From IMG/VR virus record IMGVR_UViG_3300036806_000429: a stretch of 64,000 bases of DNA, one strand, 5' to 3'. Source of the DNA: a virus. A program made the position numbers and the translations under genes. Shown piece by piece: positions 17,025 through 63,258 of the stretch; the stretch's first letter is position 1, and the number at the start of each line of letters is the position of its first letter. The notes beneath the pieces were generated by a model. It had not been told where the DNA came from. It saw only the letters and a list, made by a program, of their open reading frames with translations, and ran no database searches.

Positions 17025-17031
17025 GTGTGTT

Positions 17032-18066: not shown

Positions 18067-18082
18067 GCAACCCTCTTACCCC
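18067..18082 (-). promoter_or_regulatory. GGGTAAGAG box abutting a start codon
   Basis: The minus strand reads GGGGTAAGAGGGTTGC-ATG. TCAGCC lies 18 nt upstream of TAAGAG. The 14790 copy has TCAGCC 19 nt upstream. Confidence 0.4.
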
Positions 18083-18098
18083 TTAAACCCTTTAAGGG
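18080..18098 (-). terminator. hairpin after the HTH gene
   Basis: cccttaaa-ccc-tttaaggg lies 8 nt after the stop at 18106. Confidence 0.35.
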
Positions 18099-18105
18099 CT
18101 GACGT

Positions 18106-19954: not shown

Positions 19955-20041
19955 CCTGTGGTCTCCGGTCTACAAATGGTCGTGGGTCGGGTAACTGGGT
20001 TAGGTGGTTCTAGTTGGCGGGTCGTCGGCTGGCTGAACGCC

Positions 20042-20605
20042 CTACTCGCCGACGAGGCAGTACAGGATTTGGGCGAGAGCTGCCGCGAACGTCGGGCGCA
20101 TCTCCTCGTGGAGCAGGCGCTCCTCAATCTGGGCCGCGCTCCCGAGCCGGTCACCCACGAGCCAGTCCTGTGCCCGTTCCACGAGCGTGTTCGTGGTCGT
20201 CGGGGCGAAGCCAGGATTGAAGAGCGCCGGCACGCCGCCGTGGGCCGCGGGGTAGCGCGTGCCCGCCACGAAGCTTTCCATGATGCGTTGAACATCCAGC
20301 AGCCGTGCGCGTTTCGTCGCCCGGTCGTCTGCCCCGCTCCGGTCGTTCAGCTCGTAGGGCTCGCCGAGCTCCGCAGCCGTGGCTTCAACGCCGCGCGAAC
20401 GGAGCTCGAGATTGTAGGCCGTCTCGGTGGCGGCGTCTGCCGCCATCTTCACGGCTGCGGCCTCGTCCACCGAGCGCTCCTCGTGGTGTCGAGAGTAGCG
20501 CAGCTCGCCGGCTCGGGCGCCGTAGGCGCGGCGGAGCTCGGCGCTGAAGCGCAGGTCGAAGTCCAGTGCCACGCGGCGGATTTGGTGCAGGGTTGCTCGG
20601 TCCAT
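20042..20605 (-). CDS. hypothetical protein
   Basis: ATG 20605. GC3-rich. Confidence 0.5.
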   Translation of the reverse strand: MDRATLHQIRRVALDFDLRFSAELRRAYGARAGELRYSRHHEERSVDEAAAVKMAADAATETAYNLELRSRGVEATAAELGEPYELNDRSGADDRATKRARLLDVQRIMESFVAGTRYPAAHGGVPALFNPGFAPTTTNTLVERAQDWLVGDRLGSAAQIEERLLHEEMRPTFAAALAQILYCLVGE

Positions 20606-20618
20606 GGTCTGCTGCCTT

Positions 20619-21140
20619 TCACTTCACTTTGCGACTGGGCCACTGGTTGAACAGCTTGCCCAAGACGGAGACGTTCACGATTTGCTGCGTCCGCCACTTC
20701 TCCTTCGAGCCGTCCGCCTTCGTGACCGTCAGCTCCGAGAAGCCCCAGACGTGGCTGCCTTCGAGGGTGGCCGAGACGTGGGCGCCGACCTTGCTCTCCA
20801 ACTTCCGGATGAACAGCGTGTACTGCTCCGAGGCCATGGTGCCTGCTTCCTTCACGAAGCGTTGGACGGCCTCCTCGCTGCGCTCGTACTTCGGAGTCAT
20901 CGTGGTGCCCGTGTTCGTCACGAGGTGGAGGAGCCGGGCGCGGCGGCTGCTCTGCTCCTGGCGCTCGCGGCGGCCGAGCAGCACGCTCGGGTATTCGTAG
21001 CGCTGCGGGAAGGCCGCGAAGTCCGTCAGTGTGGCTTCCGCGAGCAGGCGCGCTTCCTTCTCGGCGCGCTCGACAGTGGCGGCGCGGAGCGGTTCGACGG
21101 CTGCTGCGATGGCGGTGGGCGTCGTGGTGCTGTTGTGCAT
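20619..21140 (-). CDS. hypothetical protein, first gene of a predicted leaderless operon
   Basis: ATG 21140 lies 6 nt downstream of the TATACC -10 of promoter copy 2. The N-terminus is MHNSTTT. Confidence 0.55.
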   Translation of the reverse strand: MHNSTTTPTAIAAAVEPLRAATVERAEKEARLLAEATLTDFAAFPQRYEYPSVLLGRRERQEQSSRRARLLHLVTNTGTTMTPKYERSEEAVQRFVKEAGTMASEQYTLFIRKLESKVGAHVSATLEGSHVWGFSELTVTKADGSKEKWRTQQIVNVSVLGKLFNQWPSRKVK

Positions 21141-35242: not shown

Positions 35243-35612
35243 GCGAACCGCCTGAGCAGTAGCGCTCGAACATCGCCGTGAGCACGGCGTCCATGGCGTT
35301 GCCGACGCGAACGCCGCGCGCTCGATGCAGCGGCCCCCGCTCCAGCACGTCGTCCGACGAAGCCTTAGCGACGAGGCGATGGCGGACGCGGCGCGCGGAG
35401 TTGGGCCAAGGCTTATCGGCCGTGTACTGCCAATCCAACTTTGCGTACGGATCCTCAACCAGCGCGGCCTCCGCCGCGGCGAAGACGGAGCCGGCGGCCG
35501 CCCCGAGCTCCTCCGGCGAGAGCTCACCGGCCTTGTTCGGGTAGACCTCCACCGACACGCACGGGACGGCGCTGGACTCGCCGAGCCGCCCGCGGCTGAT
35601 TCCGAAGCTCAC
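35235..35612 (-). CDS. hypothetical protein
   Basis: GTG 35612 in a GTGA overlap. Confidence 0.5.
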   Translation of the reverse strand: MSFGISRGRLGESSAVPCVSVEVYPNKAGELSPEELGAAAGSVFAAAEAALVEDPYAKLDWQYTADKPWPNSARRVRHRLVAKASSDDVLERGPLHRARGVRVGNAMDAVLTAMFERYCSGGSHD

Positions 35613-36151
35613 TTGCCCGCTTCCTTCAACAACGCACGAACCCGCTCCAGCTCTTTCGCCGTGTGGACCACGCCGCCGCTGTTCATCTCCAGGTACCAAC
35701 GGAGAACGGCGGCGCGCGTCTCCAGGTGATTGACGTGCCAGTTGAAGAAACAGGTGGTCAAACGCGGCGTGTCCTCGAAGTCACGCCGCAGCAAGGTGCC
35801 GCTGCCGAGCTCCGGGAAGTGGACGGCGAGGCGATTGTTCATGAAGCGGCGGACGGCCTCCAAGCGCTGCTTCCCATCCACGATCACGTACGGCCCGCGC
35901 CAGTCGCGCATCCAACCGACGCAGTTGAAGTACAGGTCCTTGCCGGACCCTCCGCCGCGCAGGATGAATTCCACATAGCGCGCGCGCTTCTCGTCGTTCC
36001 AGACGTGCGCCCGTTGGAAGTCCGGCTCCAGGTCGAGCGGCGCCGAATCCTCCTGCGTCTGTTTTTCGATGTGCCGTTCCAGGTAATCCCAGCCGACCGT
36101 GACGCAGTACGCGCCCGGCTGGGTGAGCTTCTTGATCTGTTCGAATTTCAC
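35609..36151 (-). CDS. DUF262-like (ParB/Srx-fold nuclease-type) domain protein
   Basis: GTG 36151 with an AAGGAGAG SD. PDFQRAHVWNDEKRARYVEFILRG...YVIVDGKQRLEAVRRF matches the DUF262 xxFQRxxVW...DGQQR pattern. Confidence 0.6.
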   Translation of the reverse strand: MKFEQIKKLTQPGAYCVTVGWDYLERHIEKQTQEDSAPLDLEPDFQRAHVWNDEKRARYVEFILRGGGSGKDLYFNCVGWMRDWRGPYVIVDGKQRLEAVRRFMNNRLAVHFPELGSGTLLRRDFEDTPRLTTCFFNWHVNHLETRAAVLRWYLEMNSGGVVHTAKELERVRALLKEAGK

Positions 36152-36600
36152 GATGCTCTCCTTGCCATCAGGTTGGCACAGTCTGGGCCCAAGCCGCTCT
36201 CGATGGACTCGGGCACGGTCAGCTTGCGTCCGCAGCGCCCGCAGATGCCCTCGTGCCAAACCTCCACCTTGTCGGCGAGCTGCTGGCTGAGCTGCGACGG
36301 AAAGAGCGCCTGCCGGCAGAACCAGCCGAAGGCGACGACGGACGGCGCCTCTGCCTTCGCGAAGCTCTTGCGGCCACCGTGGTGGAAACGCCGCTCGCGG
36401 ATGAATCCGATGTAGCGGTAATCACCGGTGTTGTCGGCGCCCGCCAGGAGCCTCACGAACCAGACGCCGGGCGAGGTGGCCGCCTGGATCTTGAACGTGA
36501 AGCGCGTTCCGGTCGCGATGGACCGGACCGTGAGCGTGGCGTTGCCGGCAAGGGCGAATTTGGCGATGGCCTCGCCGTTGAGGCGCGCGGCGGCGATCAC
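36148..36600 (-). CDS. hypothetical protein with a DUF6011-like C-terminal zinc ribbon
   Basis: CGRCGRKLTVPESIESGLGPDC at the C-terminus (recall of the CGRCGRxLTxPxSxxxGxGPxC motif). Confidence 0.55.
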   Translation of the reverse strand: MIAAARLNGEAIAKFALAGNATLTVRSIATGTRFTFKIQAATSPGVWFVRLLAGADNTGDYRYIGFIRERRFHHGGRKSFAKAEAPSVVAFGWFCRQALFPSQLSQQLADKVEVWHEGICGRCGRKLTVPESIESGLGPDCANLMARRAS

Positions 36601-41344: not shown

Positions 41345-41884
41345 CTACGCCTTCTTGCCGTGCTTGAACGGCCGCGTTTCGTTGTAAGCCATCTTCCTGA
41401 CGATCTCGTGGCCGAGGTCGATCTTGACGAGCGCGGCGAGATGGAAACAACGGATCACGACATCGGCGAGCTCGGAGCCCAAGCCCTGCGGCTTCTCCGC
41501 GCCTTCGTCCGGCTGGATGGCCGCTGCTATGGAGTCGACGGCCTCCGTGGCCTCGGTGTGAACGAGTGCCAGCTTGGCCAGAACCTTCACGACGTTGATG
41601 CCTGCCATCTTCAGAACGCCCGGGTTGGCGACACGGCCACGCTCCGGGTTTCCGAGCGGCTCGCCCGCGCGGACGCGCTCGGCGAGCTTGCTCAGGTTGA
41701 CGTGCAGCAACGCGATGAGGGCCAGGTCACGCTCGGCTTTCGTGGGCTCCGCCGTCTCGTCCGTCAGGTCCTCGTTCCAACCCTTGCGCTCGCCCCAGGC
41801 TTCAATCCAGCGCTGAAGGTCGCACATGCCCATCGCAGCACCAATCTGGCGTTGCATCTCCACGAATGTTTCGATCTTTTCCAT
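41345..41884 (-). CDS. MazG-like nucleoside triphosphate pyrophosphohydrolase
   Basis: All-alpha protein, about 180 aa. LVHTEATEAVDS...ELADVVIRCFHLA matches the MazG E-x-x-E...ELADV pattern. Confidence 0.65.
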   Translation of the reverse strand: MEKIETFVEMQRQIGAAMGMCDLQRWIEAWGERKGWNEDLTDETAEPTKAERDLALIALLHVNLSKLAERVRAGEPLGNPERGRVANPGVLKMAGINVVKVLAKLALVHTEATEAVDSIAAAIQPDEGAEKPQGLGSELADVVIRCFHLAALVKIDLGHEIVRKMAYNETRPFKHGKKA

Positions 41885-42160: not shown

Positions 42161-42364
42161 TCACTTTTCCCTTGCGTTGTAGCAGGCTTGGCTGCAGTAA
42201 GCCTTGGATTTGTAGGTTTCCCCGCCGCACTTCTTGCAGCGGACGATCCTGAAGATGGTCAGCGAGCCGTCGGCGACGAGGCGCTTGAATAGCGTCGCCT
42301 CTGCGACCGTCATGTAGGGCTTGTCCGGCTTGAACCGCAACAGGAAGGTGTCAACCAGTCCCAC
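42161..42364 (-). CDS. hypothetical small zinc-ribbon protein
   Basis: CKKCGG...CSQAC. ATG 42313 is an alternative start. Confidence 0.4.
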   Translation of the reverse strand: MGLVDTFLLRFKPDKPYMTVAEATLFKRLVADGSLTIFRIVRCKKCGGETYKSKAYCSQACYNAREK

Positions 42365-42908
42365 GGCCCGCCCATCGACTGCCTTGGACGCCCAGCTGTC
42401 CTTGGTATTTGCTGCGCCGGTTTGGATGGCCGTAGGGCAGAGTACAGCGAGTCTGGAGCCGCTCGATGGCGAGTTGGCAGATGCCGAGCCCGGCCACGAG
42501 CCGGATGTGGTGCGGGCTGATATTCGTCAGCTCGAGTGTGATTTGGCCCCTGAAGCCAGGATCGATGAAACCGGCGGTGGCGTGGACCACGAGCCCGAGC
42601 CGCCCCAATGAGCTCCGCCCTTCGACGCGCGCCACGAGGTCGGGGCCGATCTGCACCGTCTCGTAAGTGGTCGCCAGAACGAATTGGCCCGGCGACAGGA
42701 TGAACTCGTGCGCGTTGAGCTCCTTCATCGGCGGGATGGCATCCGGACCCTTGTCCAGATCTACGAGGGCCGGACCCTCCGGCCACCACGCGAAGTCGCT
42801 GCCCAGCCGCAGGTCGATGGATGCCGGTTGGATTGAGCCTTCGGCCAACGGGTGCACCAGCAAGCCCGAGCCGAGCTCTTTGACCAGGTCTGTGTCGGAA
42901 AGGATCAT
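42351..42908 (-). CDS. dcd: dCTP deaminase (Dcd/dUTPase superfamily)
   Basis: IQPASIDLRLG...VEGRSSLGRLGLVVHATAGFIDPGFRGQITLELTN is the classical Dcd pattern. Confidence 0.85.
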   Translation of the reverse strand: MILSDTDLVKELGSGLLVHPLAEGSIQPASIDLRLGSDFAWWPEGPALVDLDKGPDAIPPMKELNAHEFILSPGQFVLATTYETVQIGPDLVARVEGRSSLGRLGLVVHATAGFIDPGFRGQITLELTNISPHHIRLVAGLGICQLAIERLQTRCTLPYGHPNRRSKYQGQLGVQGSRWAGRGTG

Positions 42909-42947: not shown

Positions 42948-43550
42948 CTAGGCCAAAGCAAGCTTCAGCGCTGAACGCACGTCGCCCAAGGCCAACGTGA
43001 ACGCCTCCGAGGCCAAGCCGCCCGCTCGCAAGATGTAGGACGGATGGAACGTGGCGATGGCCGGCCAACTCCGGATCTCGCCATCGTACATCAGCAGCTC
43101 CACGTTGGTCTCCTCGCCGCGGAATGCCGTGATGGACGTGATGCCGGCGAGGCGCCCCGCCGTGCTTCCCAACAGCAAGAGCGCCTTGGGCCTGACGACC
43201 TTCAGCAGCATGTGGAGCCGGCCGGAGCACGCGCGGAGCTCGTCGTGCGTTGGCTTCCGATTGGCCGGCGGCCGACATGCCACCATGTTGGTGATGAACA
43301 CGTGCTCGGAGCGAACGTTCGCACGATGAAACAGCGTGTCGAGGAGGCGCCCGGCCGGGCCGACGAAGGGCCGCCCTTTCCTGTCCTCGTCCGCGCCCGG
43401 CGCTTCGCCGATGACGAACAGCGGCGCCGTCGGGTCGCCGCGCCAGTGCACGACGCTGTTGCGTTCCTCGCTCAGCGCGCAGTCCTCGCAGGCGTTCCAC
43501 TTCCGCTCGATGCCATCGAGCACTTCCAGTCGTCGGCGGATCAGGGGCAT
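42948..43550 (-). CDS. uracil-DNA glycosylase, family 4
   Basis: ATG 43550. CEDC, GEAPGADEDRKGRPFVGPAGRLL and C-terminal HPSYILR motifs. Confidence 0.8.
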   Translation of the reverse strand: MPLIRRRLEVLDGIERKWNACEDCALSEERNSVVHWRGDPTAPLFVIGEAPGADEDRKGRPFVGPAGRLLDTLFHRANVRSEHVFITNMVACRPPANRKPTHDELRACSGRLHMLLKVVRPKALLLLGSTAGRLAGITSITAFRGEETNVELLMYDGEIRSWPAIATFHPSYILRAGGLASEAFTLALGDVRSALKLALA

Positions 43551-44455
43551 TTCGCCATGTCCCACAGAGCCTTCTTCTCGCTCGGATGGACTAGCGACGC
43601 AAATTTGTAACGCAGCAGCGCTTCGGTGAGGTCGCCGGGCGAGCCTGGCTGGGCCGGGATGAGCTCCCAATCCAGATTGGTTCGGATCCGCGTGAGCTTG
43701 TAGTACAGCAGCACGTCCGCCCAGGAGTCGCTGATCAGCTTGCGGCGCCGCGGCGTCTCCGGCCAAGTGCCCTCCGGCCGGAACGACGCCAGCAACACCC
43801 TGCGCAGCGAACCGTAGTGGTTCAACAGCTTGGCCGCCGTGACCGCGCCGATGCCCGGCGCGCCCGGTATCTTGTCGCTGTGGTCGCCCGCGAGCGCCTT
43901 GAGCTGGGCGATCAGACGCGGCGGCACGCCGTGCTTCTTCTCCACCGCCTGCGCGTCGTACAATGTGTCTGACCGGAAGCCTGGCGCGACGACGAAAACG
44001 CTAGGGCGCACCAGCTGCCGCAAGTCGCTGTCGCCCGAATAGACGATCACCGTTTCGCCGCGCGCGGCGCCTTCGCGGGCGAGCCGCCCGATCACGTCGT
44101 CGGCCTCGCAAGCCACGCCGCGGTATTGCTCCACGCCGATGAGGCTGAGCATCTTGATGAGGTGCTGTTCCTGGGCGTCCATCTCGGCGATGATGTTCAG
44201 CCGATCCTGGTCCGGCTCCCCGCCGCGGCCCTTGTAGCCCGGGAACAGATCGAACCTGAAGTTGTTCTTCCCTTCCCAGGCCACGACGGCACGGCCGCCG
44301 AATTTGCTGTGGATTCGGATGGCGCAAGTCAGAAAGCCGTACATGCCGCCCGTGGACATCTCCTCGCCATCCACCGTTGCGGACAGGTCCTTGAAGGCGT
44401 CCGACGTTCGCCACAAGAGGTGGCGGCCGTCGAGCACGAGCAGATCGCCCCTCAT
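43541..44455 (-). CDS. 5'-3' exonuclease / flap endonuclease (Pol I N-terminal type)
   Basis: ATG 44455 in an ATGA overlap. GGMYGFL, CEADDVIG, YSGDSDLRQL and LAGDHSDKIPGAPGIG motifs. Confidence 0.8.
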   Translation of the reverse strand: MRGDLLVLDGRHLLWRTSDAFKDLSATVDGEEMSTGGMYGFLTCAIRIHSKFGGRAVVAWEGKNNFRFDLFPGYKGRGGEPDQDRLNIIAEMDAQEQHLIKMLSLIGVEQYRGVACEADDVIGRLAREGAARGETVIVYSGDSDLRQLVRPSVFVVAPGFRSDTLYDAQAVEKKHGVPPRLIAQLKALAGDHSDKIPGAPGIGAVTAAKLLNHYGSLRRVLLASFRPEGTWPETPRRRKLISDSWADVLLYYKLTRIRTNLDWELIPAQPGSPGDLTEALLRYKFASLVHPSEKKALWDMAKCP

Positions 44456-54267: not shown

Positions 54268-57200
54268 TTACTCTGCTGCGACGGGTTTGGCTGAAGGCAA
54301 CTCCGCTTTCTTCAGCACCTTCAGCGTTCCGCCATTGAATATGTTGGCCAGACCGCCACGCAACCGGTCCGGCGACCGCTCGATGTTCACGGTGAGCAGC
54401 CTGCCCACCTTCACCACCGACAACACGTCCTCCCAGACGGACGCGAAGCACATCACCTCAATCCAACGCTGGTCGCCGCCGAGCAGCCCGAAGTAGGCCA
54501 TCAAGCCACCCTTCCTGTCGTACTTGGGCCGAACGTCGGTGACGATGCCCGTGAACAGTCCGCCGCGCGTCGATTCCCAGAACTTCTTGTTGGTGTAGCG
54601 CGCCTTGAGGTGCGCCTTGTCCTTCCACGGGTAGTACCGCGACGGATGCCGCCCCATCACGATCCGCTCCCACAGTCCGAGCTCCTCGCCCTTGCGCACC
54701 TTCTGCCGGAAGGCGGCGATGTCGACGGCGTACTGCGCGCGGAGCGTCTGCGTAAAGTTGGAAGCGGTGACGTGCACGATCACCGGAGTGCCCAAGCCCT
54801 TGTCGATGATCTCGCGGAAGTCATCGAACAGGTGGAAGTCAAACTTCACCCGGTTCTGCTTCCCGGAGCGCTCCTCGATATTGACGTTGGCGTAGCGCGC
54901 TCCCCAGAATTGCTGCTCGCGCTCCTCCTGGCTTGGCAGAGTGCCAGTGTGGAAGTCGCCGATCTGGTTGTACTTCACCTCCACGATGACGCCCGCGATG
55001 TAGTGGCCCTTGCCGTCGAAGTCCTTGAAATAGTCATCGGATCCCATCTCGGTGATTGGCACCTTCACCGACTCGGCCATGAATGAGGCGTAGGCGTCAA
55101 TGGGGTGCCGACCGAACGCGAGCGGGCTGACCTGGCTGGACACCAACAGCTTGTCCTCCTCGTTGTAGTCGGGCTCGGCGCGGCTCGCCTCCAGCATCGC
55201 CGTCGTCTTCTCGAGCGTGTCGGACTTCCGCTTGGACGTGAGCGCGCCCCAAGCAGCGTCGGCATTCTCGATGAACCAGCGTACGTTCGGCACCAACCCG
55301 TCCAGCGCGCCGGCCTTCGCCAAAGCGACGACCGCACCACGGTTGCACTTCCGCCGCTCCACCCGGGCCGCGAAGTCCTGGATTGAAGCATAGGGCTGCG
55401 CGGCCATGATGGCGCCGGCTGCGCCCTCGCCCACGCCCTTGATGTCCACCAGCGAGCCGCGGATGGCCAGAGCTCCGTCGATGACGAAGTGCGTCTTGGA
55501 GGTCGAGACGTGCGGCGGCTTCAACTCGATGCCGTGTCGCTTCGCGTCCTTCGCGATCTGTTGGATGCGGATGCGCTCTGGCTCGTTCTTGAGCAGAGCC
55601 CAGTAGAACTCCACAGGGTAATACACCTTGATCCACATGCACCAGAACGCGATCATGCCGTACGCGGTGGCGTGGCTCTTGTTGAAGCCGTACGAGCCGA
55701 AGAAGGTGATGGCGTCCATGATCTTGTTGGCCACCGCCTCCGTCATCCCGGGCGTGTGCTTCATCGCCCCCTCCACAAACTTCTCGCGCTCCTTGCCCAG
55801 TGTCTCGTCGCCGATCTTCTTGGCAATCGTCTTGCGCAGCGAATCGGCGGTGCCCGGCGCGAAGCCCGCGATCTCGGTGAAGATGCGCAGCACGTGCTCC
55901 TGGTACACGATGATGCCCAGTGTGTCCGCCGTGACCTTGGAAACGGCCGGATGGAAGTCGATCTTTTTCACCAGGTGCGGCTTCTTCTTGCGCTCCACGT
56001 ACTTCGTCGCGAGGCCGGAGCGGCTCGTGCCCGGACGGTTGAGCGCCGTCATCGCTGCCACGTCCTCGAAGCTGTTGAAGTTCACGCCTTGGCAGACCTT
56101 GTCGGCGCTAGGCGTGTCGTACTGGAACACGCCGCCATATTCGTGGTCGGTGAAGCCCTGGAGCACCTTCGGGTCGTTCAGGTCGACATCCGACGGATTC
56201 TCCATGTCGATGTGCCGACCGTGGCGCGTCTCGATGGCCTCCAACGCCTCCTTGATCACGGTGAGCGTCCGCAGCCCGAGCACGTCCATCTTCACGAGGC
56301 CGGCCGCCGCGACGCCGTACATGTCGAAGGCGCTGACGATCACCTTCTCGTCGTTGTGCGTTCGGACCTCAAGCGGGATCACGTCCGTCAGCGGGACCGG
56401 CGAGGCCACGACCCCAGCGGCGTGGATCCCCAAGTTCTTGGCCATGCCTTCCAGCTTGCGCGCGTGGTGGAGCACCTTCGGATAGCGCTTGTTGAACTCG
56501 CGGCACACCTCGAAGTCCTTGAAGCTGTCTTCGATCGTCTGGCTGGCGCGCTCGTCGCCCGAGCTCCGCTCGATGATGCTGTTGGTGACTTGGTTCACCT
56601 CGTTCAGCGGTATCTCCAGGACGCGCGACACCGAACGGATGCACTCTTTGCCCGACAGCTTCCCGATGGTGGCTATTTGGCACACCTTGTCTTCGCCGTA
56701 CTTCTGGCGAATGTACTGGATGATCTCGCCGCGGCGCCGGTCCTCGAAGTCCATGTCCACGTCCGGCATGTCGATGCGGAACGGGCTGATGAAGCGTTCG
56801 AAGATCAACCCGTGCTCGATCGGGTCTGTCGCTGCGATGCCCAGCAGGAACGCGATGAGCGATCCGCCGACGGAGCCGCGGCCGGGCCCGACCATGATCT
56901 TGGCCTCGCGAGCGAAGGCGTACAGGTCGCGAATGATCAGGAAGTATGGCACAAACTTCTGTTTTTTGAGCGCCTTCAGCTCCATCAGCAGCCGCTGCCT
57001 GTAGATGTCCAGCGCCGCCGTCGGCGCGATCTTCTCGCGCCGCGCGTACACGTTGGCGCGACGCGGTATCTCGCGCCAAGCCCAGCCGCCCAAACACAGG
57101 TCCTTCAGATAGGCGAAGTGATCGCCCGCGTACTTCTCCGGCACGCCCGGGTCCGGAAGCAGCGCGGCGTGGTAGTCGGCCTCAATCTTGGCGGTGCACC

Positions 57201-58131
57201 CGTCGGCGAGCTCGAGTGCGCTGTTGAGTGCCTCGCGCACGAGCTCCTTGGGGATGTGGCTGTGGTGCTTCCTGAAGGCCTGGAACATCTCCTTGCGCGT
57301 TCTGAAGTGGAATTCGTCGCCGTCGAATTTGAAACGCTCGGGGTCACGCAGGTTGGTCGCCGTACCGATGCACAGCAAAACCTCGTGGTGTTCGGCGTCC
57401 GCCTGCTCCACATAGTGGGCGTCCTGCGTGGCGAGGAGCTTGTTGCGTCCGCCGTAGCGATCGCGCAGCTTCAGCATCAGCTCGTTGGCAATGTACTGGT
57501 CCTTGATGGCGTGCGGCTGCACCTCCAACCAGAACCGGTCGCCGAAGGCCTCCTGGAGTTGATCGGCAAAGTCGAACGCCTGGCGCTTCTTCCCGGCCAG
57601 CCACGAGTCGTTGATGGGGCTGGACAGACAGCCGGAGGCAACGTGGATGCCCGCGCCGTGCTCGATGAGGGCCGCCAAGTCGACGCGCGGCTTGTAGTAG
57701 AATCCATCGATGAACGACGCGCTGGACAGCTTGTACAGGTTCCGGAGCCCCTCATTGGTCTGGGCCCAACACGTGATGTGCCAACGGTCCCGGATGCCCT
57801 CGCGCTCCTCGTACTGCTTGACCAGCAGCTTGTGGTCGGCCTTCTTGGCGCCGGCTGTGATTGTCGCCTTCTCCTCGTCCGTCAGGCCGCGGCGCCTCAT
57901 GTCGCGCGACACGTAAAACTCCGTGCCGAAGATGGGCTTGATGTCGGCCGCCTTGCACTGCTCGTAGTGCGTCATCACCCCGCGCATCGTGCCGTGATCT
58001 GTGAAGGCGAGGGCCTTGTGGCCGCGAGCCTTCGCCGTCTTCACGTACTCGCTGATCTTCCCGCAGCCATCGAGCTGGCTCATGTCGCTGTGGGTGTGAA
58101 GGTGAACGAAGTCGTCAACCAATTCAGGCAT
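54268..58131 (-). CDS. dnaE: DNA polymerase III alpha subunit (DnaE-type replicative polymerase)
   Basis: 1287 aa. N-terminal PHP motif HLHTHSDMSQLDG, followed by polymerase core and OB-fold region in the usual order. Confidence 0.95.
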   Translation of the reverse strand: MPELVDDFVHLHTHSDMSQLDGCGKISEYVKTAKARGHKALAFTDHGTMRGVMTHYEQCKAADIKPIFGTEFYVSRDMRRRGLTDEEKATITAGAKKADHKLLVKQYEEREGIRDRWHITCWAQTNEGLRNLYKLSSASFIDGFYYKPRVDLAALIEHGAGIHVASGCLSSPINDSWLAGKKRQAFDFADQLQEAFGDRFWLEVQPHAIKDQYIANELMLKLRDRYGGRNKLLATQDAHYVEQADAEHHEVLLCIGTATNLRDPERFKFDGDEFHFRTRKEMFQAFRKHHSHIPKELVREALNSALELADGCTAKIEADYHAALLPDPGVPEKYAGDHFAYLKDLCLGGWAWREIPRRANVYARREKIAPTAALDIYRQRLLMELKALKKQKFVPYFLIIRDLYAFAREAKIMVGPGRGSVGGSLIAFLLGIAATDPIEHGLIFERFISPFRIDMPDVDMDFEDRRRGEIIQYIRQKYGEDKVCQIATIGKLSGKECIRSVSRVLEIPLNEVNQVTNSIIERSSGDERASQTIEDSFKDFEVCREFNKRYPKVLHHARKLEGMAKNLGIHAAGVVASPVPLTDVIPLEVRTHNDEKVIVSAFDMYGVAAAGLVKMDVLGLRTLTVIKEALEAIETRHGRHIDMENPSDVDLNDPKVLQGFTDHEYGGVFQYDTPSADKVCQGVNFNSFEDVAAMTALNRPGTSRSGLATKYVERKKKPHLVKKIDFHPAVSKVTADTLGIIVYQEHVLRIFTEIAGFAPGTADSLRKTIAKKIGDETLGKEREKFVEGAMKHTPGMTEAVANKIMDAITFFGSYGFNKSHATAYGMIAFWCMWIKVYYPVEFYWALLKNEPERIRIQQIAKDAKRHGIELKPPHVSTSKTHFVIDGALAIRGSLVDIKGVGEGAAGAIMAAQPYASIQDFAARVERRKCNRGAVVALAKAGALDGLVPNVRWFIENADAAWGALTSKRKSDTLEKTTAMLEASRAEPDYNEEDKLLVSSQVSPLAFGRHPIDAYASFMAESVKVPITEMGSDDYFKDFDGKGHYIAGVIVEVKYNQIGDFHTGTLPSQEEREQQFWGARYANVNIEERSGKQNRVKFDFHLFDDFREIIDKGLGTPVIVHVTASNFTQTLRAQYAVDIAAFRQKVRKGEELGLWERIVMGRHPSRYYPWKDKAHLKARYTNKKFWESTRGGLFTGIVTDVRPKYDRKGGLMAYFGLLGGDQRWIEVMCFASVWEDVLSVVKVGRLLTVNIERSPDRLRGGLANIFNGGTLKVLKKAELPSAKPVAAE

Positions 58132-58381
58132 CTTCCCTCAAAGTTAGCAGGTAGCGCGCGACCTCGCGCAGGTCGTCGGGCGCGTTGGACATGGACAGCT
58201 GCCGTACGTACTGCGGATCCTTGGCGGCCACCTGACTGAGCGTGCTGCCCGAGTGCTGCCCGCTGAGCAGCAGCGCGTCGCCGCCGTCTGTGCTGACCTT
58301 CGCGCGGAGCGGCCGCGCCGCGTTCAACTGTTGCGGGTCGCGTGCGCCCTTCAGGCTCTGGCGCAGCTCACCGAGCTTCAT
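58124..58381 (-). CDS. MKL-leader family small protein
   Basis: ATG 58381 gives MKLGELRQSL. It overlaps the dnaE start by 8 nt. Confidence 0.5.
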   Translation of the reverse strand: MKLGELRQSLKGARDPQQLNAARPLRAKVSTDGGDALLLSGQHSGSTLSQVAAKDPQYVRQLSMSNAPDDLREVARYLLTLREDA

Positions 58382-58934
58382 ACATGCTGGCCAGGAGCTC
58401 GATGCGCGACACGCCGTCTTCAGGCCGCGTCACGTCGGTGTCGATGGCGTCCTTGAAGAAGGGCACGAGCTCATACACGAGCTCGAAGGAGCCGTGCAGA
58501 GCTTTCAGGATGGACAGCGAGGGCGAGGCGTCGCCCCTTGCCACTACGCGCTTCAGGGACGTGTTGGGGTCGGCCGTCAGCCAGACGTACAGGACCGGGG
58601 TGCGCCCGAACAACCCTGCCCAAAGGCGCACCAGCTCGCCTGCATCTGAGATGGGCCTGGATCCGTAGGCGACGGCTGAAGCCATCGAGCGGTCCAGCAC
58701 GACGTTCGACGGCTTCAGCTTGCCCAAGATGTCGGCGACGTACAGATCATCCACGTGCGTGTTGTATGGCACGTTGAAGGCCTGAAGGTCGCGCTCCACC
58801 TTGTACTTGCCGTTGAAGTGACAGTCGGAGCTCGGCCGGAAGGCCCGGAGCGGCGTGTAGCCGAGCCGCTCCTGTAGCAGCCTTGCGTAGGTCGACTTGC
58901 CCACGCCGTTCACGCCTTCCAACACGATGATCAA
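58368..58934 (-). CDS. thymidylate kinase-like P-loop dNMP kinase
   Basis: TTG 58934. P-loop LEGVNGVGKST, DRSMASAVAYG (Tmk DR(Y/H)xxSxxAY), and LID-like KRVVARGD. Confidence 0.7.
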   Translation of the reverse strand: MIIVLEGVNGVGKSTYARLLQERLGYTPLRAFRPSSDCHFNGKYKVERDLQAFNVPYNTHVDDLYVADILGKLKPSNVVLDRSMASAVAYGSRPISDAGELVRLWAGLFGRTPVLYVWLTADPNTSLKRVVARGDASPSLSILKALHGSFELVYELVPFFKDAIDTDVTRPEDGVSRIELLASMYEAR

Positions 58935-59077
58935 TGGAGGTTCTCCGGAGGTGCCGCCTTGGGCTTGTTCGGAACCAAACGAAGCAGCGCGGATCCGACG
59001 AGGCCAAAGACGAGCAGAACGACGGCGAGGCCTCCGCCGACGGCCACGATGTACTGGAAGACGAGAAGCGGGTTCAC
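58931..59077 (-). CDS. possible 48-aa single-TM peptide
   Basis: Not in the track. GTG 59077 is in a GTGA overlap with the thyX stop. VNPLLVFQYIVAVGGGLAVVLLVFGLVGSALLRLVPNKPKAAPPENLH. Its stop overlaps the kinase TTG. Confidence 0.35.
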   Translation of the reverse strand: MNPLLVFQYIVAVGGGLAVVLLVFGLVGSALLRLVPNKPKAAPPENLH

Positions 59078-60084
59078 GCGATGACTTTCAGCCGTCGTCC
59101 GGAGAACACGTCCCGGCCCCAGAACTTCTTGTAAGCGCCGCCGCGCTTCAGGAGCTCCTCGGCCATGGGAACGCCGGATGCCTCCAGAGCCTCGATGCGC
59201 GTCACGTCGGTGGTCGCCGACGTGAGGCGCTGCTTTCCCTCGTCCGTGAGGTGGTGATTCACGACGTGCAGCGGGCAGGGCGCGTGACGGTCATCCTGCG
59301 TGTAGCGGCGCCGGTTCTCCTCCATGTACACGCAGCCGGTGAAGTCGTCGCCCTTCAGGCACGGTGGCGTGACGAGCTCGCCGAAGATGGGATCCACCTT
59401 GGTCGTCAGCTCGCTGATCATCCCTTCGATCACCGGCCCCCAGATGCCCAGCTGCAGAATCCAGCAGCCGCGCTTGGAGACGATGTGTTGGAGCGCGCCG
59501 ATGTTGAGGCGCCAGCTGATCCGGTGCGTCGCGCCGAGCGGGATGAGCTCACGCGCGTCCTCCATGGGAACGCCGGCCTTGACCAGCTCGTTGTACACAT
59601 CCTGGATCATATCCATGGTGTCGTGGTACTTCATCCGCAGCGTTTGGTCGGCGTGGTCACGGACCGTCTCGGGCAGGCGGTACTGTTTCCGCTCGGCGAA
59701 GCGCCCCATGTCCTGGATGCGCATCGACTGGCTCCACCAGCTCGAGTCGGCGAGGTCGGGGATGGCCTTCACGTCCACCATGCCCATGTCCACTCCGAGG
59801 CGCTCCGGGCTCGGGCTGACGCCGATGCGATGTCGCACGGCCTGCTCGCGCCAACTCACGCTCACGCCCTCGATCATGAACACGAAGTCCACGTGCTCGC
59901 CGATCGGGATGCGCTGTGCGACGACGGCGCGGAACAGCTCGCGGACCTTCTCGGGGTCCACGTCGCGTTTCACTTCTTCGACGCTGAGCAGCTTGTTCTC
60001 GTTCTTGGACGCCTCCCAGACCACGTACACGGTTTCCAGCGGGTCTTTGGTGTGCGTCACCAGCGTTACTTTGGGTTTAGCCAT
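59074..60084 (-). CDS. thyX: ThyX-like flavin-dependent thymidylate synthase, divergent and extended
   Basis: EHVDFVFMIEGVSVSWREQAVRHR...WWSQSMRI...ARELIPLG...ALQHIVSKR follows ThyX motif order. An insertion of about 27 aa follows RHR, and there is a C-terminal extension of about 90 aa. Confidence 0.7.
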   Translation of the reverse strand: MAKPKVTLVTHTKDPLETVYVVWEASKNENKLLSVEEVKRDVDPEKVRELFRAVVAQRIPIGEHVDFVFMIEGVSVSWREQAVRHRIGVSPSPERLGVDMGMVDVKAIPDLADSSWWSQSMRIQDMGRFAERKQYRLPETVRDHADQTLRMKYHDTMDMIQDVYNELVKAGVPMEDARELIPLGATHRISWRLNIGALQHIVSKRGCWILQLGIWGPVIEGMISELTTKVDPIFGELVTPPCLKGDDFTGCVYMEENRRRYTQDDRHAPCPLHVVNHHLTDEGKQRLTSATTDVTRIEALEASGVPMAEELLKRGGAYKKFWGRDVFSGRRLKVIA

Positions 60085-61267
60085 GGCCGTTCTCCTTTTT
60101 CGTTGACGTTTGCACCGCGATGTGGGCGCGCTCGAGTCGTTCGATGCCCGTCTTGAGCATCGAGTGCGTGATGTTCAGCGGCGGCGTGAGCTTCACAGGG
60201 CCCGGCCCGTCGTGGAACACGCCAATCAGCAAGTGCTGATTCAGCGCCGCCTCCGCGAGAGCCATCGGCCGGTCGTAATCGAACGCGATCAGAGCTCCTG
60301 GGCCGCGCACGTTCCTGAAACCGGGGATGGCGCGCAGGCTACCGCGTAGGATCTTGCCGATGTCTTCGGCCGCCTCGCGGTTTTTCTTCCACCAAGACAG
60401 CATCCCTTCGACCATGCTACAGCTGAACGGGTTGCCGCCGAACGTGGAGAAGTGCGAGCCGACCGTGAATGCGTTTGCGTAGTCGCCGCGCGCGAGCATC
60501 GCCCCGACCGGCGCCCCCATGGCCACACCCTTCGCCAGCGTGACGATGTCCGGGCGGACGCCCACCCGCTGTGCGTAGGTGAACGCATCGCCGCCGCAGC
60601 GGCCCGAACCTGTCTGGACCTCATCGAAGATGAGGGCGATGTCATTCCGGTCACAGAAGTCACGGAGCTGGTACAGGTACGATCCGCCGAGCTCGTTGAC
60701 GTCGCCGTTGGCGAACACCGGCGACAGGATCACAGCGGCTGCCTTCGCGCTGAGCTCGCTGATGTCGGTGAAGTGTCGGAAGCCTTGAAGGTGCGGACCG
60801 AACCCGGTGTAATGGTACACGGGCCCGTCGCCGGCCGCCAACGCGCCGTACGTTCGCCCGTGGAAGCCCTTGCGATAGGCCCAAACCTCGTAGCGCAGGT
60901 TGTCATCGCCGGCCGAGCCGCTACGCTGGAATTGGCGGAGGCGAGCGCACTTTATGGCAGCTTCAACGGCCTCCGTGCCGGAGTTGCAGAAGAAAACCTT
61001 GTCCATTCCCACCACCTTGCACAGCTCAGCGGCGACATCGGTGCGCGTCTTGAAGGCGTAGCGGTTCGGAGCGTGGACTGGAATCCTGTTGTCCACGAGC
61101 CGCCCCAGCGCCGCCCAAGGCTCCGAGTAGCCCAGAGACGCTGTGCCGACGTCACAGAAAAAGTCCAAGTATCGTTCGCCAGTGCCGGTGAAGAGCTCGG
61201 GCCCGTCGCCGCCGCAGAACGTCGGAGCGTTCGGCGGCAACTTGATCGTGTCCATCAAACTTGACAT
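60077..61267 (-). CDS. class-III PLP-dependent aminotransferase (ArgD/GabT/omega-transaminase type)
   Basis: ATG 61267 in a TGATG overlap. FCNSGTEAVEAAIKCAR, IFDEVQTGSGRCG and TLAKGVAMGAPVGA (PLP Lys). Confidence 0.85.
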   Translation of the reverse strand: MSSLMDTIKLPPNAPTFCGGDGPELFTGTGERYLDFFCDVGTASLGYSEPWAALGRLVDNRIPVHAPNRYAFKTRTDVAAELCKVVGMDKVFFCNSGTEAVEAAIKCARLRQFQRSGSAGDDNLRYEVWAYRKGFHGRTYGALAAGDGPVYHYTGFGPHLQGFRHFTDISELSAKAAAVILSPVFANGDVNELGGSYLYQLRDFCDRNDIALIFDEVQTGSGRCGGDAFTYAQRVGVRPDIVTLAKGVAMGAPVGAMLARGDYANAFTVGSHFSTFGGNPFSCSMVEGMLSWWKKNREAAEDIGKILRGSLRAIPGFRNVRGPGALIAFDYDRPMALAEAALNQHLLIGVFHDGPGPVKLTPPLNITHSMLKTGIERLERAHIAVQTSTKKENGHG

Positions 61268-62208
61268 CAAGCTCCTGCTACTTGTTGCTGCGTTGGCTGG
61301 CTGAATCCGACGATGGAAGCGACTTGCTCCCAGTCCACCACGCGCGTCGTGCCGGGGATGGTGAGGCCTCTGTTGTGCGGCTGATCGAACAACAGCACGT
61401 TTACGCCGACGCGCGCCAGAGCTCCGGCGTTGTCGGGGTGGTCCTCCACGAACGCCACCGGCCAAGCCGGAGCGACGTGCTTGTAGAGCGCTTCGACCTT
61501 GTTCCTGTCGAAGATCAGCAGGTCGCAAGGGATCTTGTGCTTGTCCAGCCAGAAAACCGTGTCGGCGTGCAGGCGCTTGTATTGCCACTGCGGGCGCGCC
61601 GTGATGATCACGATCTTCAGGCCGGCGGCCTTCGCCGCGCGGAGCGCGTCGGCGGCGCCTGGAATGGCGTCCATCTCCCGGAAGCGGCCGCCCGCATAGA
61701 ACTGGTTCTTCATGTTCTCGGACGCTTCGAGGCGCAAGACGGCCGTCACGTCGCGGTCATCCACGATGCCCAACTCATCACGCCACGGCTGCAGGTCGCA
61801 CAGCACGTCGTCCAAGTCGCTGACCAGGACCCTCGTGTTGTTCTCGAGCTTCAGCCGCTCCTCCATCGCGCGGCGTTGCACCAGAACCGTCTTCGACGTG
61901 AAGGCGTGCACGAGCTCGACCAATGACACGCCATGAAGCTGCGCGAGCGCCAACAGCGTCTTCAGGACGTCAGCGCATTCCTCTGCCACCGCCGTGGTGT
62001 TGGGGCGCGGGGCGCGCAGGATGTGCCGCTTGTAGCCGGCGCTAAGCCGCCCGAGCTCCGTGGCCTCCTCGTGGAGGTGAAGCACCAGATCGTCGGCGAG
62101 GTCGCGCCGCTCGACGTCAGACAGGTCGTCCGGGTCGAGCCCGAGAAACTGCTGCTGCTGCGCCTGAAGACGCCAAAGGCTTTCCAGATCGTTCACGCCA
62201 GATTCCAT
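61267..62208 (-). CDS. fusion of a MazG/dimeric-dUTPase-like NTP pyrophosphatase domain with a HAD 5'(3')-deoxyribonucleotidase-like domain
   Basis: ATG 62208. N-terminal HLHEEATELGRL...AEECADVLKTLLALA. C-terminal VLVSDLDDVLCDL (DxDxV), IVIITARP and AFVEDHPDN. Confidence 0.65.
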   Translation of the reverse strand: MESGVNDLESLWRLQAQQQQFLGLDPDDLSDVERRDLADDLVLHLHEEATELGRLSAGYKRHILRAPRPNTTAVAEECADVLKTLLALAQLHGVSLVELVHAFTSKTVLVQRRAMEERLKLENNTRVLVSDLDDVLCDLQPWRDELGIVDDRDVTAVLRLEASENMKNQFYAGGRFREMDAIPGAADALRAAKAAGLKIVIITARPQWQYKRLHADTVFWLDKHKIPCDLLIFDRNKVEALYKHVAPAWPVAFVEDHPDNAGALARVGVNVLLFDQPHNRGLTIPGTTRVVDWEQVASIVGFSQPTQQQVAGA

Positions 62209-63173
62209 TCTTTCACGAGCTTTTTCGACGTGTTGAGCACCACGTCCGAGGTGGCCCGCGGATCCCACTGGGCGAAGCGCCCCAGCGGGCGGATGTTGAA
62301 CGGCCAAGCGGGCTTCGTGGCCAGCGGCAATAGGTGCCCGTTCAGGTCCTTCAGAACGCGATTCAGCGCCCAGCCCTCTGGGAAAAGAAAGTTCATCTCT
62401 GATGTGATTCGGTCGCTGGTCTTCTCCTCGTCCCAAGCGCCGTTGAACTCGCACGTGTAGCCACCATCGCGCGGCGAGAGCCTGTGGACGAGGTTCTCCG
62501 GCGTGTAGGGAGTGTACACGTAATCCCAGCGCGCGTAGTGATCCATGCGCGGGTTGGGGTCGACCATCACGAGGTTCAGCTTGGAGGCCATCGCATCGGG
62601 GAGGTCGAACCAGGACAGCTGCTTCATCACCCACAGCGGCACCGTGGTGATCATCAGGTCGTACCTGTGCACGACGCCGGACGAGCCGGTGACCTTGTGC
62701 GGTTCGATCTTGTCGGCACGATCAGGAACGATGTTGGCGCGCGCGACGAGGCGGCGAAGCGCCTGCTGCATGTCGCAGCGCAGAGCCGTTCGCGGGCCGG
62801 TCGCCTCTGGATCGTTCATCGAGCGCGCAGCGAAGGCGTCCGGCTCGATGCCACGGGTTTTCCTGTAGTGATCGTGCTGGATTCGCATCGCACGATCCTT
62901 GTCAATGCCGCGCATGCAAGCCGGGTACGGCTCCACGACGCCCTTCAGGAGGATGCCGCCCTGGACGGAATAGTCGGTGTGCGTCACCCCCAGGTCGTCG
63001 AGCATCCCCATCATCTCGTCCGTCTTGTGGAGGTACTTCAGGCCGCCCGCCATGAAGTCACCGCCGGGCCTGCCGATCTCGAGCACTTTGACATCCAGCC
63101 CTGGCACCTTCTGGAAAACCCAGGAGGCGATCAAGCCTGAGATGCCTCCGCCAATTATCAACAGCTTTTTCAT
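62193..63173 (-). CDS. FAD/NAD(P)-binding Rossmann oxidoreductase (Glf / amine-oxidase superfamily-like)
   Basis: ATG 63173 with a GGAGGA SD. MKKLLIIGGGISGLIAS is a GxGxxG dinucleotide fold. The C-terminal PLGRFAQWD recalls the Glf GRxxxYxY motif. Confidence 0.65.
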   Translation of the reverse strand: MKKLLIIGGGISGLIASWVFQKVPGLDVKVLEIGRPGGDFMAGGLKYLHKTDEMMGMLDDLGVTHTDYSVQGGILLKGVVEPYPACMRGIDKDRAMRIQHDHYRKTRGIEPDAFAARSMNDPEATGPRTALRCDMQQALRRLVARANIVPDRADKIEPHKVTGSSGVVHRYDLMITTVPLWVMKQLSWFDLPDAMASKLNLVMVDPNPRMDHYARWDYVYTPYTPENLVHRLSPRDGGYTCEFNGAWDEEKTSDRITSEMNFLFPEGWALNRVLKDLNGHLLPLATKPAWPFNIRPLGRFAQWDPRATSDVVLNTSKKLVKEWNLA

Positions 63174-63190
63174 GAAGTCCTCCATCGGAA

Positions 63191-63246
63191 TGCCCCGGGC
63201 GGGGAGGCGTAGAAATCGGCCAAGACCGCTTCCCCCGCCCGGGGCA
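63191..63246 (-). terminator. long GC-rich stem-loop between operons
   Basis: tgccccgggcgggga / tcccccgcccggggca form a stem of about 14 bp, 13 nt after the stop at 63259. There is no clear U-tract. Confidence 0.4.
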
Positions 63247-63258
63247 CCACGAATCTTG

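Follow-up and report, generated by a model that had tools for sequence, protein, structure and literature searches.

A conserved, putative nucleotide-tailoring block of uncultured phages, with a possible role in supplying an amine-bearing pyrimidine deoxynucleotide

A 64-kb stretch of viral DNA (IMG/VR record IMGVR_UViG_3300036806_000429, referred to in its full length as the window) encodes five overlapping enzyme genes next to the gene for its DnaE-type DNA polymerase: a flavoprotein binding flavin adenine dinucleotide (FAD), a fusion of a MazG-like pyrophosphatase with an NT5C-type nucleotidase, a class III aminotransferase dependent on pyridoxal phosphate (PLP), a ThyX-like enzyme and a Tmk-like kinase. 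These genes form a real and conserved nucleotide-tailoring module of an uncultured phage clade, and no description of it was found in the literature on ThyX, aminotransferase or transaminase, phage and hypermodification combined. Tentatively, and with somewhat less than even confidence, the block may be read as a pre-replicative module that draws on the dU/dT nucleotide pool to provide the adjacent DnaE with a non-canonical, amine-bearing pyrimidine deoxynucleotide. We infer the substrates, the order of steps, the aminated position and the incorporation into DNA alike.

Conservation and organisation of the block

With the aminotransferase, the flavoprotein family and the ThyX family taken in turn as seeds, 4, 20 and 51 IMG/VR loci were retrieved. 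In 26 of the 51 contigs with ThyX, tblastn with all window proteins placed the five genes side by side, immediately upstream of DnaE. It also detected the genes for the fusion, ThyX and the aminotransferase in three contigs of low guanine-cytosine (GC) content (L058, L059 and L078); the two of these that were inspected, L058 and L078, carry a Rossmann-FAD open reading frame (ORF) and a P-loop kinase ORF at the expected spots, both too diverged for tblastn. The block thus totals about 29 IMG/VR contigs, to which a JGI and an NCBI contig (112 and 109 kb) can be added, whose precomputed Pfam calls include NT5C, Aminotran_3 and Thy1. Across these carriers protein identity to the window spans roughly 25–70% and GC at third codon positions (GC3) lies between 0.33 and 0.9; the aminotransferase, ThyX-like and Tmk-like genes change places with one another, exclusively within the block. 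Recurrence of the five genes together in about 29 IMG/VR contigs places the arrangement far beyond chance, and answers a check proposed in the preliminary description of the window, namely whether the genes co-occur as a block in related phages: the five enzymes travel together in dozens of diverged phages.

That description, made from the sequence, had placed five translationally coupled enzyme genes on the minus strand, and an ORF check recovered each of them (Table 1). Successive gene ends overlap by 16, 1, 8, 4, 4, 14 and 8 nt, the overlaps running on through an ExoX-C-like gene and DnaE, and neither a promoter-like site nor a terminator-like excess was found inside the block. An independent Logan assembly of the same phage (L028) yields gene calls as long as those in the window (326, 313, 396, 336 and 188 aa, then 85 aa and a DnaE of 1287 aa). 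The block, the ExoX-C-like gene and DnaE overlap in their reading frames and so are probably co-transcribed, and the adjacency of the block to the latter two recurs in related loci.

The five enzymes

About 70 window ORFs were scanned for families, and searches of Pfam, NCBIfam, PHROGs and the Protein Data Bank (PDB) uphold the calls for the ThyX-like enzyme, the aminotransferase, the nucleotidase half of the fusion and the kinase. The ThyX-like enzyme matches Thy1 (PF02511) at 81.5 bits (cut-off 24.8), and scores 58.8 bits against TIGR02170, under the equivalog cut-off of 87.9. It keeps R84-H85-R86, S120, R122, R178 and R205, with the RHR triplet and S120/R122 invariant in the family, and residues R84, R86, R122, R178 and R205, likewise invariant, align to the dUMP-binding arginines R78, R80, R90, R147 and R174 of the Thermotoga maritima enzyme. 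Because all dUMP-contacting arginines are kept, the enzyme probably acts on a dUMP-like nucleotide. The equivalents of H53 and Y91 are presumably not kept, judging by an alignment to the T. maritima sequence. An insertion of about 26 residues (87–115) in the substrate loop splits the RHRx7S motif and is disordered in the AlphaFold2 (AF2) model, while a C-terminal helical extension of about 100 aa is confidently folded, and four cysteines (207, 242, 251 and 270) are invariant. The model has a mean predicted local distance difference test score (pLDDT) of 80.9, and Foldseek aligns it to T. maritima ThyX with a TM-score of 0.67–0.75 (target length). The reading of this protein as a divergent ThyX is upheld by its sub-cut-off score, insertion, cysteines and extension. 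The clade comprises 376 homologs, met on viral and metagenome contigs only. One of these (P0164, 573 aa) holds an intein domain (PF14890), which may be a sign of an important gene.

The aminotransferase matches Aminotran_3 (PF00202) at 212.8 bits, and its PLP lysine K246, together with D215 and Q218, is invariant, R138 (in FHGRT) being retained as well; the class III assignment made at the outset thus stands. Its closest families are the acetylornithine, ornithine and putrescine aminotransferases, with an ArgD score far above that for BioA, yet the NCBIfam ArgD models give it 250 bits against cut-offs of 372–410. A residue-by-residue alignment to the structures 2eh6, 2e54 and 4adb reveals F-A-N-G-D (185–189) in the window protein at the site of QGEGG, and all 19 phage aminotransferases have (A/S)PV(F/L)GNN where the ArgD/AstC/ornithine aminotransferase (OAT) group has (E)PxQGEGG. 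The family alignment divides into two subtypes; K359 of the window protein aligns to the C-terminal arginine (V/I-R-F) of ArgD structures, a position occupied by arginine in the longer subtype B. The lost glutamate and the C-terminal arginine are equivalent to E235 and R413 of OAT, which in OAT and GabT form the switch between glutamate and 2-oxoglutarate. Taken by its sequence, the enzyme is best described as ArgD-derived and divergent, rather than as a housekeeping ortholog. Where GenBank phage records match it, at about 33% identity, the proteins are of the bacterial ArgD/AstC type and the records either contaminant-like or transduced.

Pfam recognises the flavoprotein at its Rossmann N-terminus only. 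It has no PHROG family, no INPHARED match, and no match to a UDP-galactopyranose mutase (UGM)/Glf family in Pfam or NCBIfam, and a Foldseek search of a viral structure library returned generic flavoproteins only. Its 194 detectable homologs are all uncharacterised, many of them on contigs of 100–120 kb, and share many invariant arginine, tyrosine and lysine residues; by sequence this would be a new family, seen on viral and metagenome contigs only. More is learned from the AF2 model (pLDDT 92.7), for which the top Foldseek TM-score is 0.77 (UGM 4dsh_B, at 12–14% identity), amine oxidases and protoporphyrinogen oxidase (PPO) following at 0.55–0.65. These structural neighbours of the predicted fold include putrescine and monoamine oxidases, PPO and flavin-dependent halogenases, with no glucose-methanol-choline (GMC) oxidoreductases among the top matches, and the modelled fold is assigned to the amine-oxidase/PPO/UGM superfamily. 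A role as Glf/UGM in sugar metabolism was considered and set aside, as no sequence family matches and the block has no gene for a glycosyltransferase or for sugar activation; at 326 aa the protein is also shorter than UGM (>360 aa). The true start of its gene may be the second ATG, at 63161, behind a GGAGGA motif. Pattern scans of 185,579 GTDB species genomes found no relative of the flavoprotein or of the ThyX clade, and therefore offer no clue to a host or prophage. Close orthology of the aminotransferase and flavoprotein to ArgD and Glf had been named beforehand as a finding that would refute a modification pathway; neither proved to be such an ortholog, the aminotransferase scoring below the ArgD cut-offs and the flavoprotein having no sequence family and no GTDB relative in the pattern scan.

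The fusion had been described as a MazG-like pyrophosphatase joined to a nucleotidase of the haloacid dehalogenase (HAD) type, and the call is right, because an alignment of 18 sequences displays the EExxE...ExxD motif and the family profile matches both MazG-type and cdN/mdN structures. Its C-terminal half scores 46.1 bits against NT5C (PF06941, cut-off 24.8), the family profile matches cdN/mdN structures at 1e-6, and the motif D131-L-D133-D-V, containing the catalytic D131 and D133, is invariant in the 18 homologs. The N-terminal motif consists of E47, E48, E51...E77 and D80, with E47, E48 and D80 invariant, and the profile has weak similarity to the MazG-type structures 5ie9, 2q73 and 2gta (E = 2e-4 to 1.5e-3). 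The two halves are accordingly assigned, from these motifs and profiles, as a predicted MazG-like all-alpha NTP pyrophosphohydrolase and a predicted NT5C-type HAD 5'(3')-deoxyribonucleotidase.

The P-loop and DRx motif of the kinase, along with its Pfam score, bear out the designation Tmk-like. It matches Thymidylate_kin (PF02223) at 36.5 bits (cut-off 27) and PHROG 761 at 4e-15, and carries the motifs G7-x4-G12-K13 and D81-R82-S83...S86...A-Y, in which G7, G12, K13, D81, R82 and S86 are invariant. Its TIGR00041 score of 35.7 bits lies under the equivalog cut-off of 83.25, and the family profile matches YorR (2axp, 1e-11), Tmk (2pbr, 6e-11) and deoxynucleoside kinases (1e-7), with no clear split from the last.

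Table 1. The block, its flanks and related genes of nucleotide metabolism (window positions)
Feature	Coordinates	Strand	Basis or remark
FAD-binding flavoprotein, 326 aa	62193..63173	minus	Rossmann N-terminus (Pfam), AF2 fold
MazG-like/NT5C fusion, 313 aa	61267..62208	minus	Pfam NT5C, profile vs MazG-type structures
Class III PLP aminotransferase, 396 aa	60077..61267	minus	Pfam Aminotran_3
ThyX-like enzyme, 336 aa	59074..60084	minus	Pfam Thy1
Possible transmembrane micro-protein, 48 aa	58931..59077	minus	Coding-like GC, similar ORF in L007
Tmk-like P-loop (deoxy)nucleotide kinase, 188 aa	58368..58934	minus	Pfam Thymidylate_kin
ExoX-C-like protein, 85 aa, and DnaE-type DNA polymerase III alpha	54268..58381	minus	
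GC-rich hairpin, stem ~15 bp	63190..63247	minus	In 85-nt gap 5' of flavoprotein gene
dCTP deaminase (dcd)	42351-42908	minus	DCD 5e-43
Second MazG-like pyrophosphatase	41345-41884	minus	PHROG 8e-24
Family-4 uracil-DNA glycosylase	42948-43766	minus	TIGR00758 140.8 bits, above cut-off; beside dcd and 5'-3' exonuclease

What the block may make

All five enzymes retain their catalytic residues, and a plausible route can be drawn through them. Dcd would convert dCTP to dUTP, and the MazG-like half of the fusion would hydrolyse this to dUMP, onto the C5 of which the four-cysteine ThyX-like flavoenzyme would transfer a one-carbon unit. The flavoprotein, with its UGM/amine-oxidase fold, would then create a carbonyl on that nucleotide or its nucleoside, in the simplest case by oxidation of 5-hydroxymethyl to 5-formyl, and the ArgD-derived class III aminotransferase would turn this carbonyl into a primary amine, for instance in 5-aminomethyl-dU(MP). 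The Tmk-like kinase would phosphorylate the aminated product toward the deoxynucleoside triphosphate (dNTP), and the NT5C half of the fusion may either drain competing dTMP or supply dephosphorylated substrate for the flavoprotein and aminotransferase steps. In favour of this reading count the overlap of the genes and their continuation into DnaE, the conservation of the block, an aminotransferase and a flavoprotein that are not housekeeping copies, the retained dUMP-contacting arginines, the insertion, cysteines and extension of the ThyX-like enzyme together with its nearest cultured-phage relative in an SP-15-species phage, and the SapB/SapH and LipO precedent described below. Amination at C5 is favoured over the 5' carbon on three grounds: the resemblance of the kinase to Tmk, the probable co-transcription of the module with the replicase, and a pyrophosphatase/nucleotidase that opposes ThyX and Tmk unless the nucleotides differ. 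The more specific proposal, that a C5-substituted dUTP bearing an amino group is made before replication from a ThyX-type start, and without ThyA, the 5-hydroxymethyldeoxyuridine DNA kinase (5-HMUDK) or aGPT-Pplase, is advanced with slightly less confidence.

The preliminary description had seen here a candidate pathway of thymidine hypermodification or base replacement, and had seen no ThyA-like or aGPT-Pplase-like gene. The second observation is confirmed by the lack of PF00303 or aGPT-Pplase Pfam matches among the scanned window ORFs, and the sole kinase found in these scans is the Tmk-like one, although it is unconfirmed whether the libraries model 5-HMUDK. The first is partly sustained: the conserved block, its non-housekeeping enzymes and the atypical ThyX speak for it, whereas the absence of the hallmark ThyA and aGPT-Pplase genes from the window, and the occurrence of the ThyX clade also without the aminotransferase, do not. 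The suggested flavin-dependent step from 5-hydroxymethyl to 5-formyl is weakened by the predicted fold, since enzymes of the amine-oxidase/UGM fold usually carry out C–N or C–C oxidation or reactions with no net redox change, not oxidation of primary alcohols. As the site of oxidation and transamination, the 5' carbon of the nucleoside fits the nucleotidase equally well.

Besides this mismatch of fold and reaction, several observations weigh against the amine-bearing nucleotide. No second Thy1-family or thymidylate synthase gene was found among the scanned ORFs of the window. Four T-containing palindromes are strongly depleted across the whole window (observed vs expected: GACGTC 10/29.7, CACGTG 15/34.2, ACGCGT 1/17.3, TTCGAA 2/13.6; z = -3.9 to -5.5), palindromes as a class not being avoided; as a proxy for modification the pattern is ambiguous, though the depletion suggests that T-containing sites are still exposed to restriction. 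That phages with the block can be assembled from standard metagenome libraries also speaks, weakly, against a very bulky modification. In the loci L020 and L026 a flavoprotein homolog of 33% identity (L026 9983-11068) lies directly upstream of DnaE, and the 10 kb to either side of it contain none of the other four genes (ThyX-like, aminotransferase, fusion, kinase). The best structural match of the kinase profile is YorR of SPbeta, a prophage with canonical DNA in which YorR adjoins the NT5C-type YorS, so that a kinase paired with a nucleotidase need not mean base replacement.

The ThyX clade itself supplies a further counter-argument. About 18 IMG/VR contigs of phages with a PolA-type polymerase (L052-L057, L060, L061, L064, L067-L071, L073, L076, L077 and L079) encode a four-cysteine ThyX of 37–50% identity, near which no aminotransferase, flavoprotein, fusion or Tmk-like gene is found. 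Occurring as it does without aminotransferase and flavoprotein, the clade cannot be tied to amination, and may be a phage-type dTMP synthase. In L052 (4777-15055) the genes upstream of ThyX encode a PD-(D/E)XK nuclease, AAA_24 and DUF669 proteins, a nucleoside-2-deoxyribosyltransferase-like protein (Nuc_deoxyrib_tr-like), a YfbR-like HD 5'-deoxynucleotidase, a DUF6378 protein and a radical SAM/SPASM enzyme. The distribution of the clade cuts both ways, for in both phage types it sits just upstream of the polymerase gene, beside enzymes that destroy deoxynucleoside monophosphates (dNMPs) and a cofactor-dependent enzyme of a sort employed in tailoring, which speaks for the amine-bearing nucleotide; the PolA-type neighbourhood may be another kind of tailoring module around this ThyX.

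In a rival explanation, which we regard as rather unlikely, the block serves ordinary nucleotide supply. ThyX would then make dTMP and Tmk dTDP, the fusion would sanitise or balance dUTP, dUMP and damaged dNTPs, and the aminotransferase and flavoprotein would be two unrelated, co-transcribed auxiliary genes serving, for example, polyamine or amino-acid metabolism or one-carbon supply. The fully retained dUMP-binding residues of a single Thy1-family enzyme, the ThyX clade of PolA-type phages, the YorR-like kinase and the avoided palindromes all agree with such a role, as do the matches of the aminotransferase to acetylornithine, ornithine and putrescine families and the putrescine and monoamine oxidases near the flavoprotein in structure. 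Linkage of five genes through divergence, GC shifts and internal shuffling would, however, be unusual for hitch-hiking auxiliary genes, the aminotransferase is without the QGE motif and the flavoprotein without a cellular relative in the pattern scan, and a fusion that strips dNTPs to nucleosides opposes ThyX and Tmk unless the two use different nucleotides.

The same stripping activity would acquire a direct biosynthetic role if the sugar rather than the base were aminated, following the logic of SapB/SapH and LipL/LipO. In this improbable scheme the fusion would strip dTTP or dTMP to thymidine, the flavoprotein would oxidise its 5'-CH2OH to the 5'-aldehyde, and the aminotransferase would yield 5'-amino-5'-deoxythymidine (or the deoxyuridine form), either an antimetabolite or inhibitor or, once the kinase has N-phosphorylated it, a building block for phosphoramidate-linked DNA. 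Each enzyme would stay within the known reactions of its class, ThyX could be an ordinary thymidylate synthase, and the SapB/SapH precedent accepts unphosphorylated substrates only (PMC10127198). The families of flavoprotein and aminotransferase nevertheless differ from those of SapB/SapH, making any resemblance convergent; the Tmk-type DRx...S..AY motif is one expected with a 5'-phosphate substrate; what the phage would gain is not evident, and the probable co-transcription with DnaE favours a replication substrate over a secreted metabolite. That 5'-amino-5'-deoxythymidine is carried into the genome by kinase and DnaE, creating natural N5'-P3' phosphoramidate linkages at T and hence a backbone modification, must be considered extremely unlikely.

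A decidedly improbable variant of base amination resembles MnmEG-dependent aminomethylation, an amine or amino acid trapping the exocyclic methylene of ThyX in place of its reduction. The aminotransferase would here produce the nucleophile, and the flavoprotein would trim the adduct by C–N oxidation, in the manner of MnmC and of the PaMx11 flavin-dependent enzyme. Lee et al. propose attack of glycine on a transient exocyclic methylene, suggest the same for MnmEG, and place ThyX with it among the flavin-dependent uracil methylases (PMC8989533). An amine-oxidase/UGM fold that is not that of a typical alcohol oxidase keeps such a MnmEG/MnmC-like variant under consideration, the flavoprotein having a C–N oxidase fold, and the nearest families of the aminotransferase yield ornithine- or diamine-type products. 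On the other hand, no ThyX is known to release a product other than dTMP, the block has neither decarboxylase nor ligase, and the scheme is purely inferential.

Three other modifications were examined and dropped, as the scanned ORFs have no match to PurZ or DatZ (Z-genome), Que or DpdA (7-deazaguanine), or a cytosine hydroxymethylase or TET (hydroxymethylcytosine).

Should the block indeed make an amine-bearing pyrimidine deoxynucleotide, it would constitute a second, independent route to modified pyrimidines, probably acting on the free nucleotide pool, and would bring new chemistry to phage anti-restriction, new enzymes for amino-functionalised dNTPs, and a genomic marker of modified DNA in a widespread uncultured clade, with hundreds of homologs from soil and other metagenomes on contigs of 100–120 kb. 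Should its role be ordinary, it still defines three families: a four-cysteine ThyX, a GNN-motif aminotransferase, and a flavoprotein without Pfam or PHROG family.

Genomic setting and relation to known systems

The window has a GC content of 64%, and the minus strand carries almost all of its genes. With its portal, terminase, XkdF-type protease and Mu-F-like protein, and a replication and recombination module made up of DnaE, RecA, SbcCD, Dcd, an HU-like protein, a 5'-3' exonuclease and a family-4 uracil-DNA glycosylase, it belongs to a tailed phage. The block is carried by uncultured phages with genomes of roughly 105 kb, about 40 kb of which falls outside the window; the ThyX-like protein recurs with 100% identity on two other contigs, one of 106,028 bp from JGI and one from Logan (SRR11835809). 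Searches of 50,697 GenBank phage records by blastn ('distant' mode) and tblastn found no cultured relative with the block, and the best identity to cultured phages for DnaE, the portal and the ThyX-like protein is only 27–35%. The closest cultured relatives of the portal are Rhizobium phages of the L338C type, which have a Pol I replication module and no block.

The dcd and second MazG genes previously located at 41.3–42.9 kb are both supported by family matches (Table 1). The glycosylase ORF overlaps that of the exonuclease, so that its true start is probably internal. Elsewhere, a 216-aa protein (35609-36259, minus strand) contains a GmrSD N-terminal (DUF262) domain (E = 1.4e-8), odd to meet in a phage since modified DNA is the restriction target of GmrSD-family enzymes. 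DUF7227 strongly matches (E = 2e-82) one protein of the structural region (among ORFs 2140-21140, minus strand), and DUF6011 matches one protein between 22 and 45 kb.

At the 5' edge of the block the hairpin occupies its sole non-coding gap there. With a minimum free energy of -48.7 kcal/mol (z = -3.7; none of 200 shuffles folds as well), and no U-tract behind it, it is unique in the window, and may serve in processing, attenuation or mRNA stability; L005 and L007 have no corresponding gap. Upstream of it lies a 291-aa gene (63259-64134) that extends beyond the window end. The hydrophobic 48-aa micro-ORF noted earlier between the kinase and ThyX genes shares bases with the stop of ThyX and with the start of the kinase. 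Its existence finds some support in coding-like GC at the three codon positions (0.76/0.37/0.76) and in a similar transmembrane micro-ORF of L007 (14228-14449, sharing xPxLLxxYIVAxxxGLA), perhaps also in L005, but it is uncalled by the gene caller, missing in remoter relatives and outside the conserved core.

Single lineages carry inserts in the block, namely DNA methyltransferases, a methyltransferase-like ORF, a second aminotransferase and a short-chain dehydrogenase/reductase resembling UDP-sulfoquinovose synthase. The last lies between the ThyX and aminotransferase genes of L011 (12618-14033; NF041015 487 bits, cut-off 575). Inserts of 250–270 aa with a GGSG motif resembling class-I S-adenosylmethionine-dependent methyltransferases (L010 11829-12632, L014 11830-12642, L015 6430-7200, L009 13030-13782) have no NCBIfam or PDB match, and those of other lineages are N6/N4 DNA methyltransferases or MT-A70 methyltransferases (L006 10888-11790, L024 14727-15311). 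Between the primase/helicase genes and the block, L005 (4739-8120) and L006 (4638-7964) encode a CbbQ/MoxR-type AAA+ ATPase and a CobT_C/VWA protein. The DnaE of several related loci (for example L001 13035-17657) aligns in two parts about 0.6 kb apart, a hint of an intein or some other insertion.

To our knowledge, characterised thymidine hypermodifications all start with a ThyA-family hydroxymethylase, and most are completed on DNA by 5-HMUDK and aGPT-Pplase. With these systems of hypermodification or replacement (5-hydroxymethyldeoxyuridine in SPO1/SP8; PhiW-14, SP10, ViI, M6, PaMx11, SH-Ab 15599; PMC5889632, PMC8989533, PMC13458397) the block shares its logic: a C5 one-carbon transferase acting on the dUMP pool, a kinase, a pyrophosphatase, a nucleotidase, PLP- and flavin-dependent tailoring enzymes, and linkage to replication genes. 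It differs in having a ThyX-type instead of a ThyA-type enzyme, a class III aminotransferase instead of a decarboxylase and a flavoprotein of a new family, and its steps most likely take place on free nucleotides or nucleosides rather than on DNA after replication.

Relatedness to canonical ThyX (T. maritima TM0449) extends to the core fold, the RHR motif and the dUMP-binding arginines, at an identity of about 19%. Among proteins of cultured phages, LIS04_124 of Listeria phage LIS04 (of the SP-15 species) comes closest to the ThyX-like protein, with 27% identity over about 300 aa; it shares the motifs WxQxxR and WIxQ...W.P but is without RHR and the four cysteines, and has a nucleoside-deoxyribosyltransferase-like gene and an HD-domain gene in its neighbourhood. 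It presumably corresponds to gp130 of Bacillus phage SP-15. That phage has a hypermodified thymine, the hypermodified dUTP being made before replication, and Kropinski et al. hypothesised, leaving it untested there, that its divergent Thy1 paralog gp130 is an hmdUMP synthase (PMC5977210).

Z-genome clusters (PurZ, MazZ, DatZ) follow a common principle with the block, in that a MazG-type pyrophosphatase yields a dNMP and a second hydrolase removes the canonical competitor, next to the replicase; base, enzymes and chemistry all differ. In chemical terms the pairs SapB/SapH and LipO are, by analogy, the closest precedent. SapB/SapH (PumI/PumG) combine an FAD oxidase, which converts uridine or pseudouridine to the 5'-aldehyde, with a class-III-type (BioA-like) aminotransferase, which forms the 5'-amine, a transamination that LipO also performs (PMC10127198). 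Having been shown experimentally, this route establishes a flavoprotein followed by a class III aminotransferase as a proven means of aminating pyrimidine nucleosides. The pseudouridimycin (PUM) cluster, moreover, includes an adenylate-kinase homolog, and cryptic phosphorylation and dephosphorylation have been discussed for related pathways (PMC10127198). SapB, however, is a GMC oxidase and SapH is BioA-like, whereas the phage flavoprotein has a predicted amine-oxidase/UGM fold and the phage aminotransferase is ArgD-like by family scores; SapB/SapH and LipO belong to cellular antibiotic pathways acting on ribonucleosides, and the block, with its ThyX and Tmk homologs, to the replication operon of a phage.

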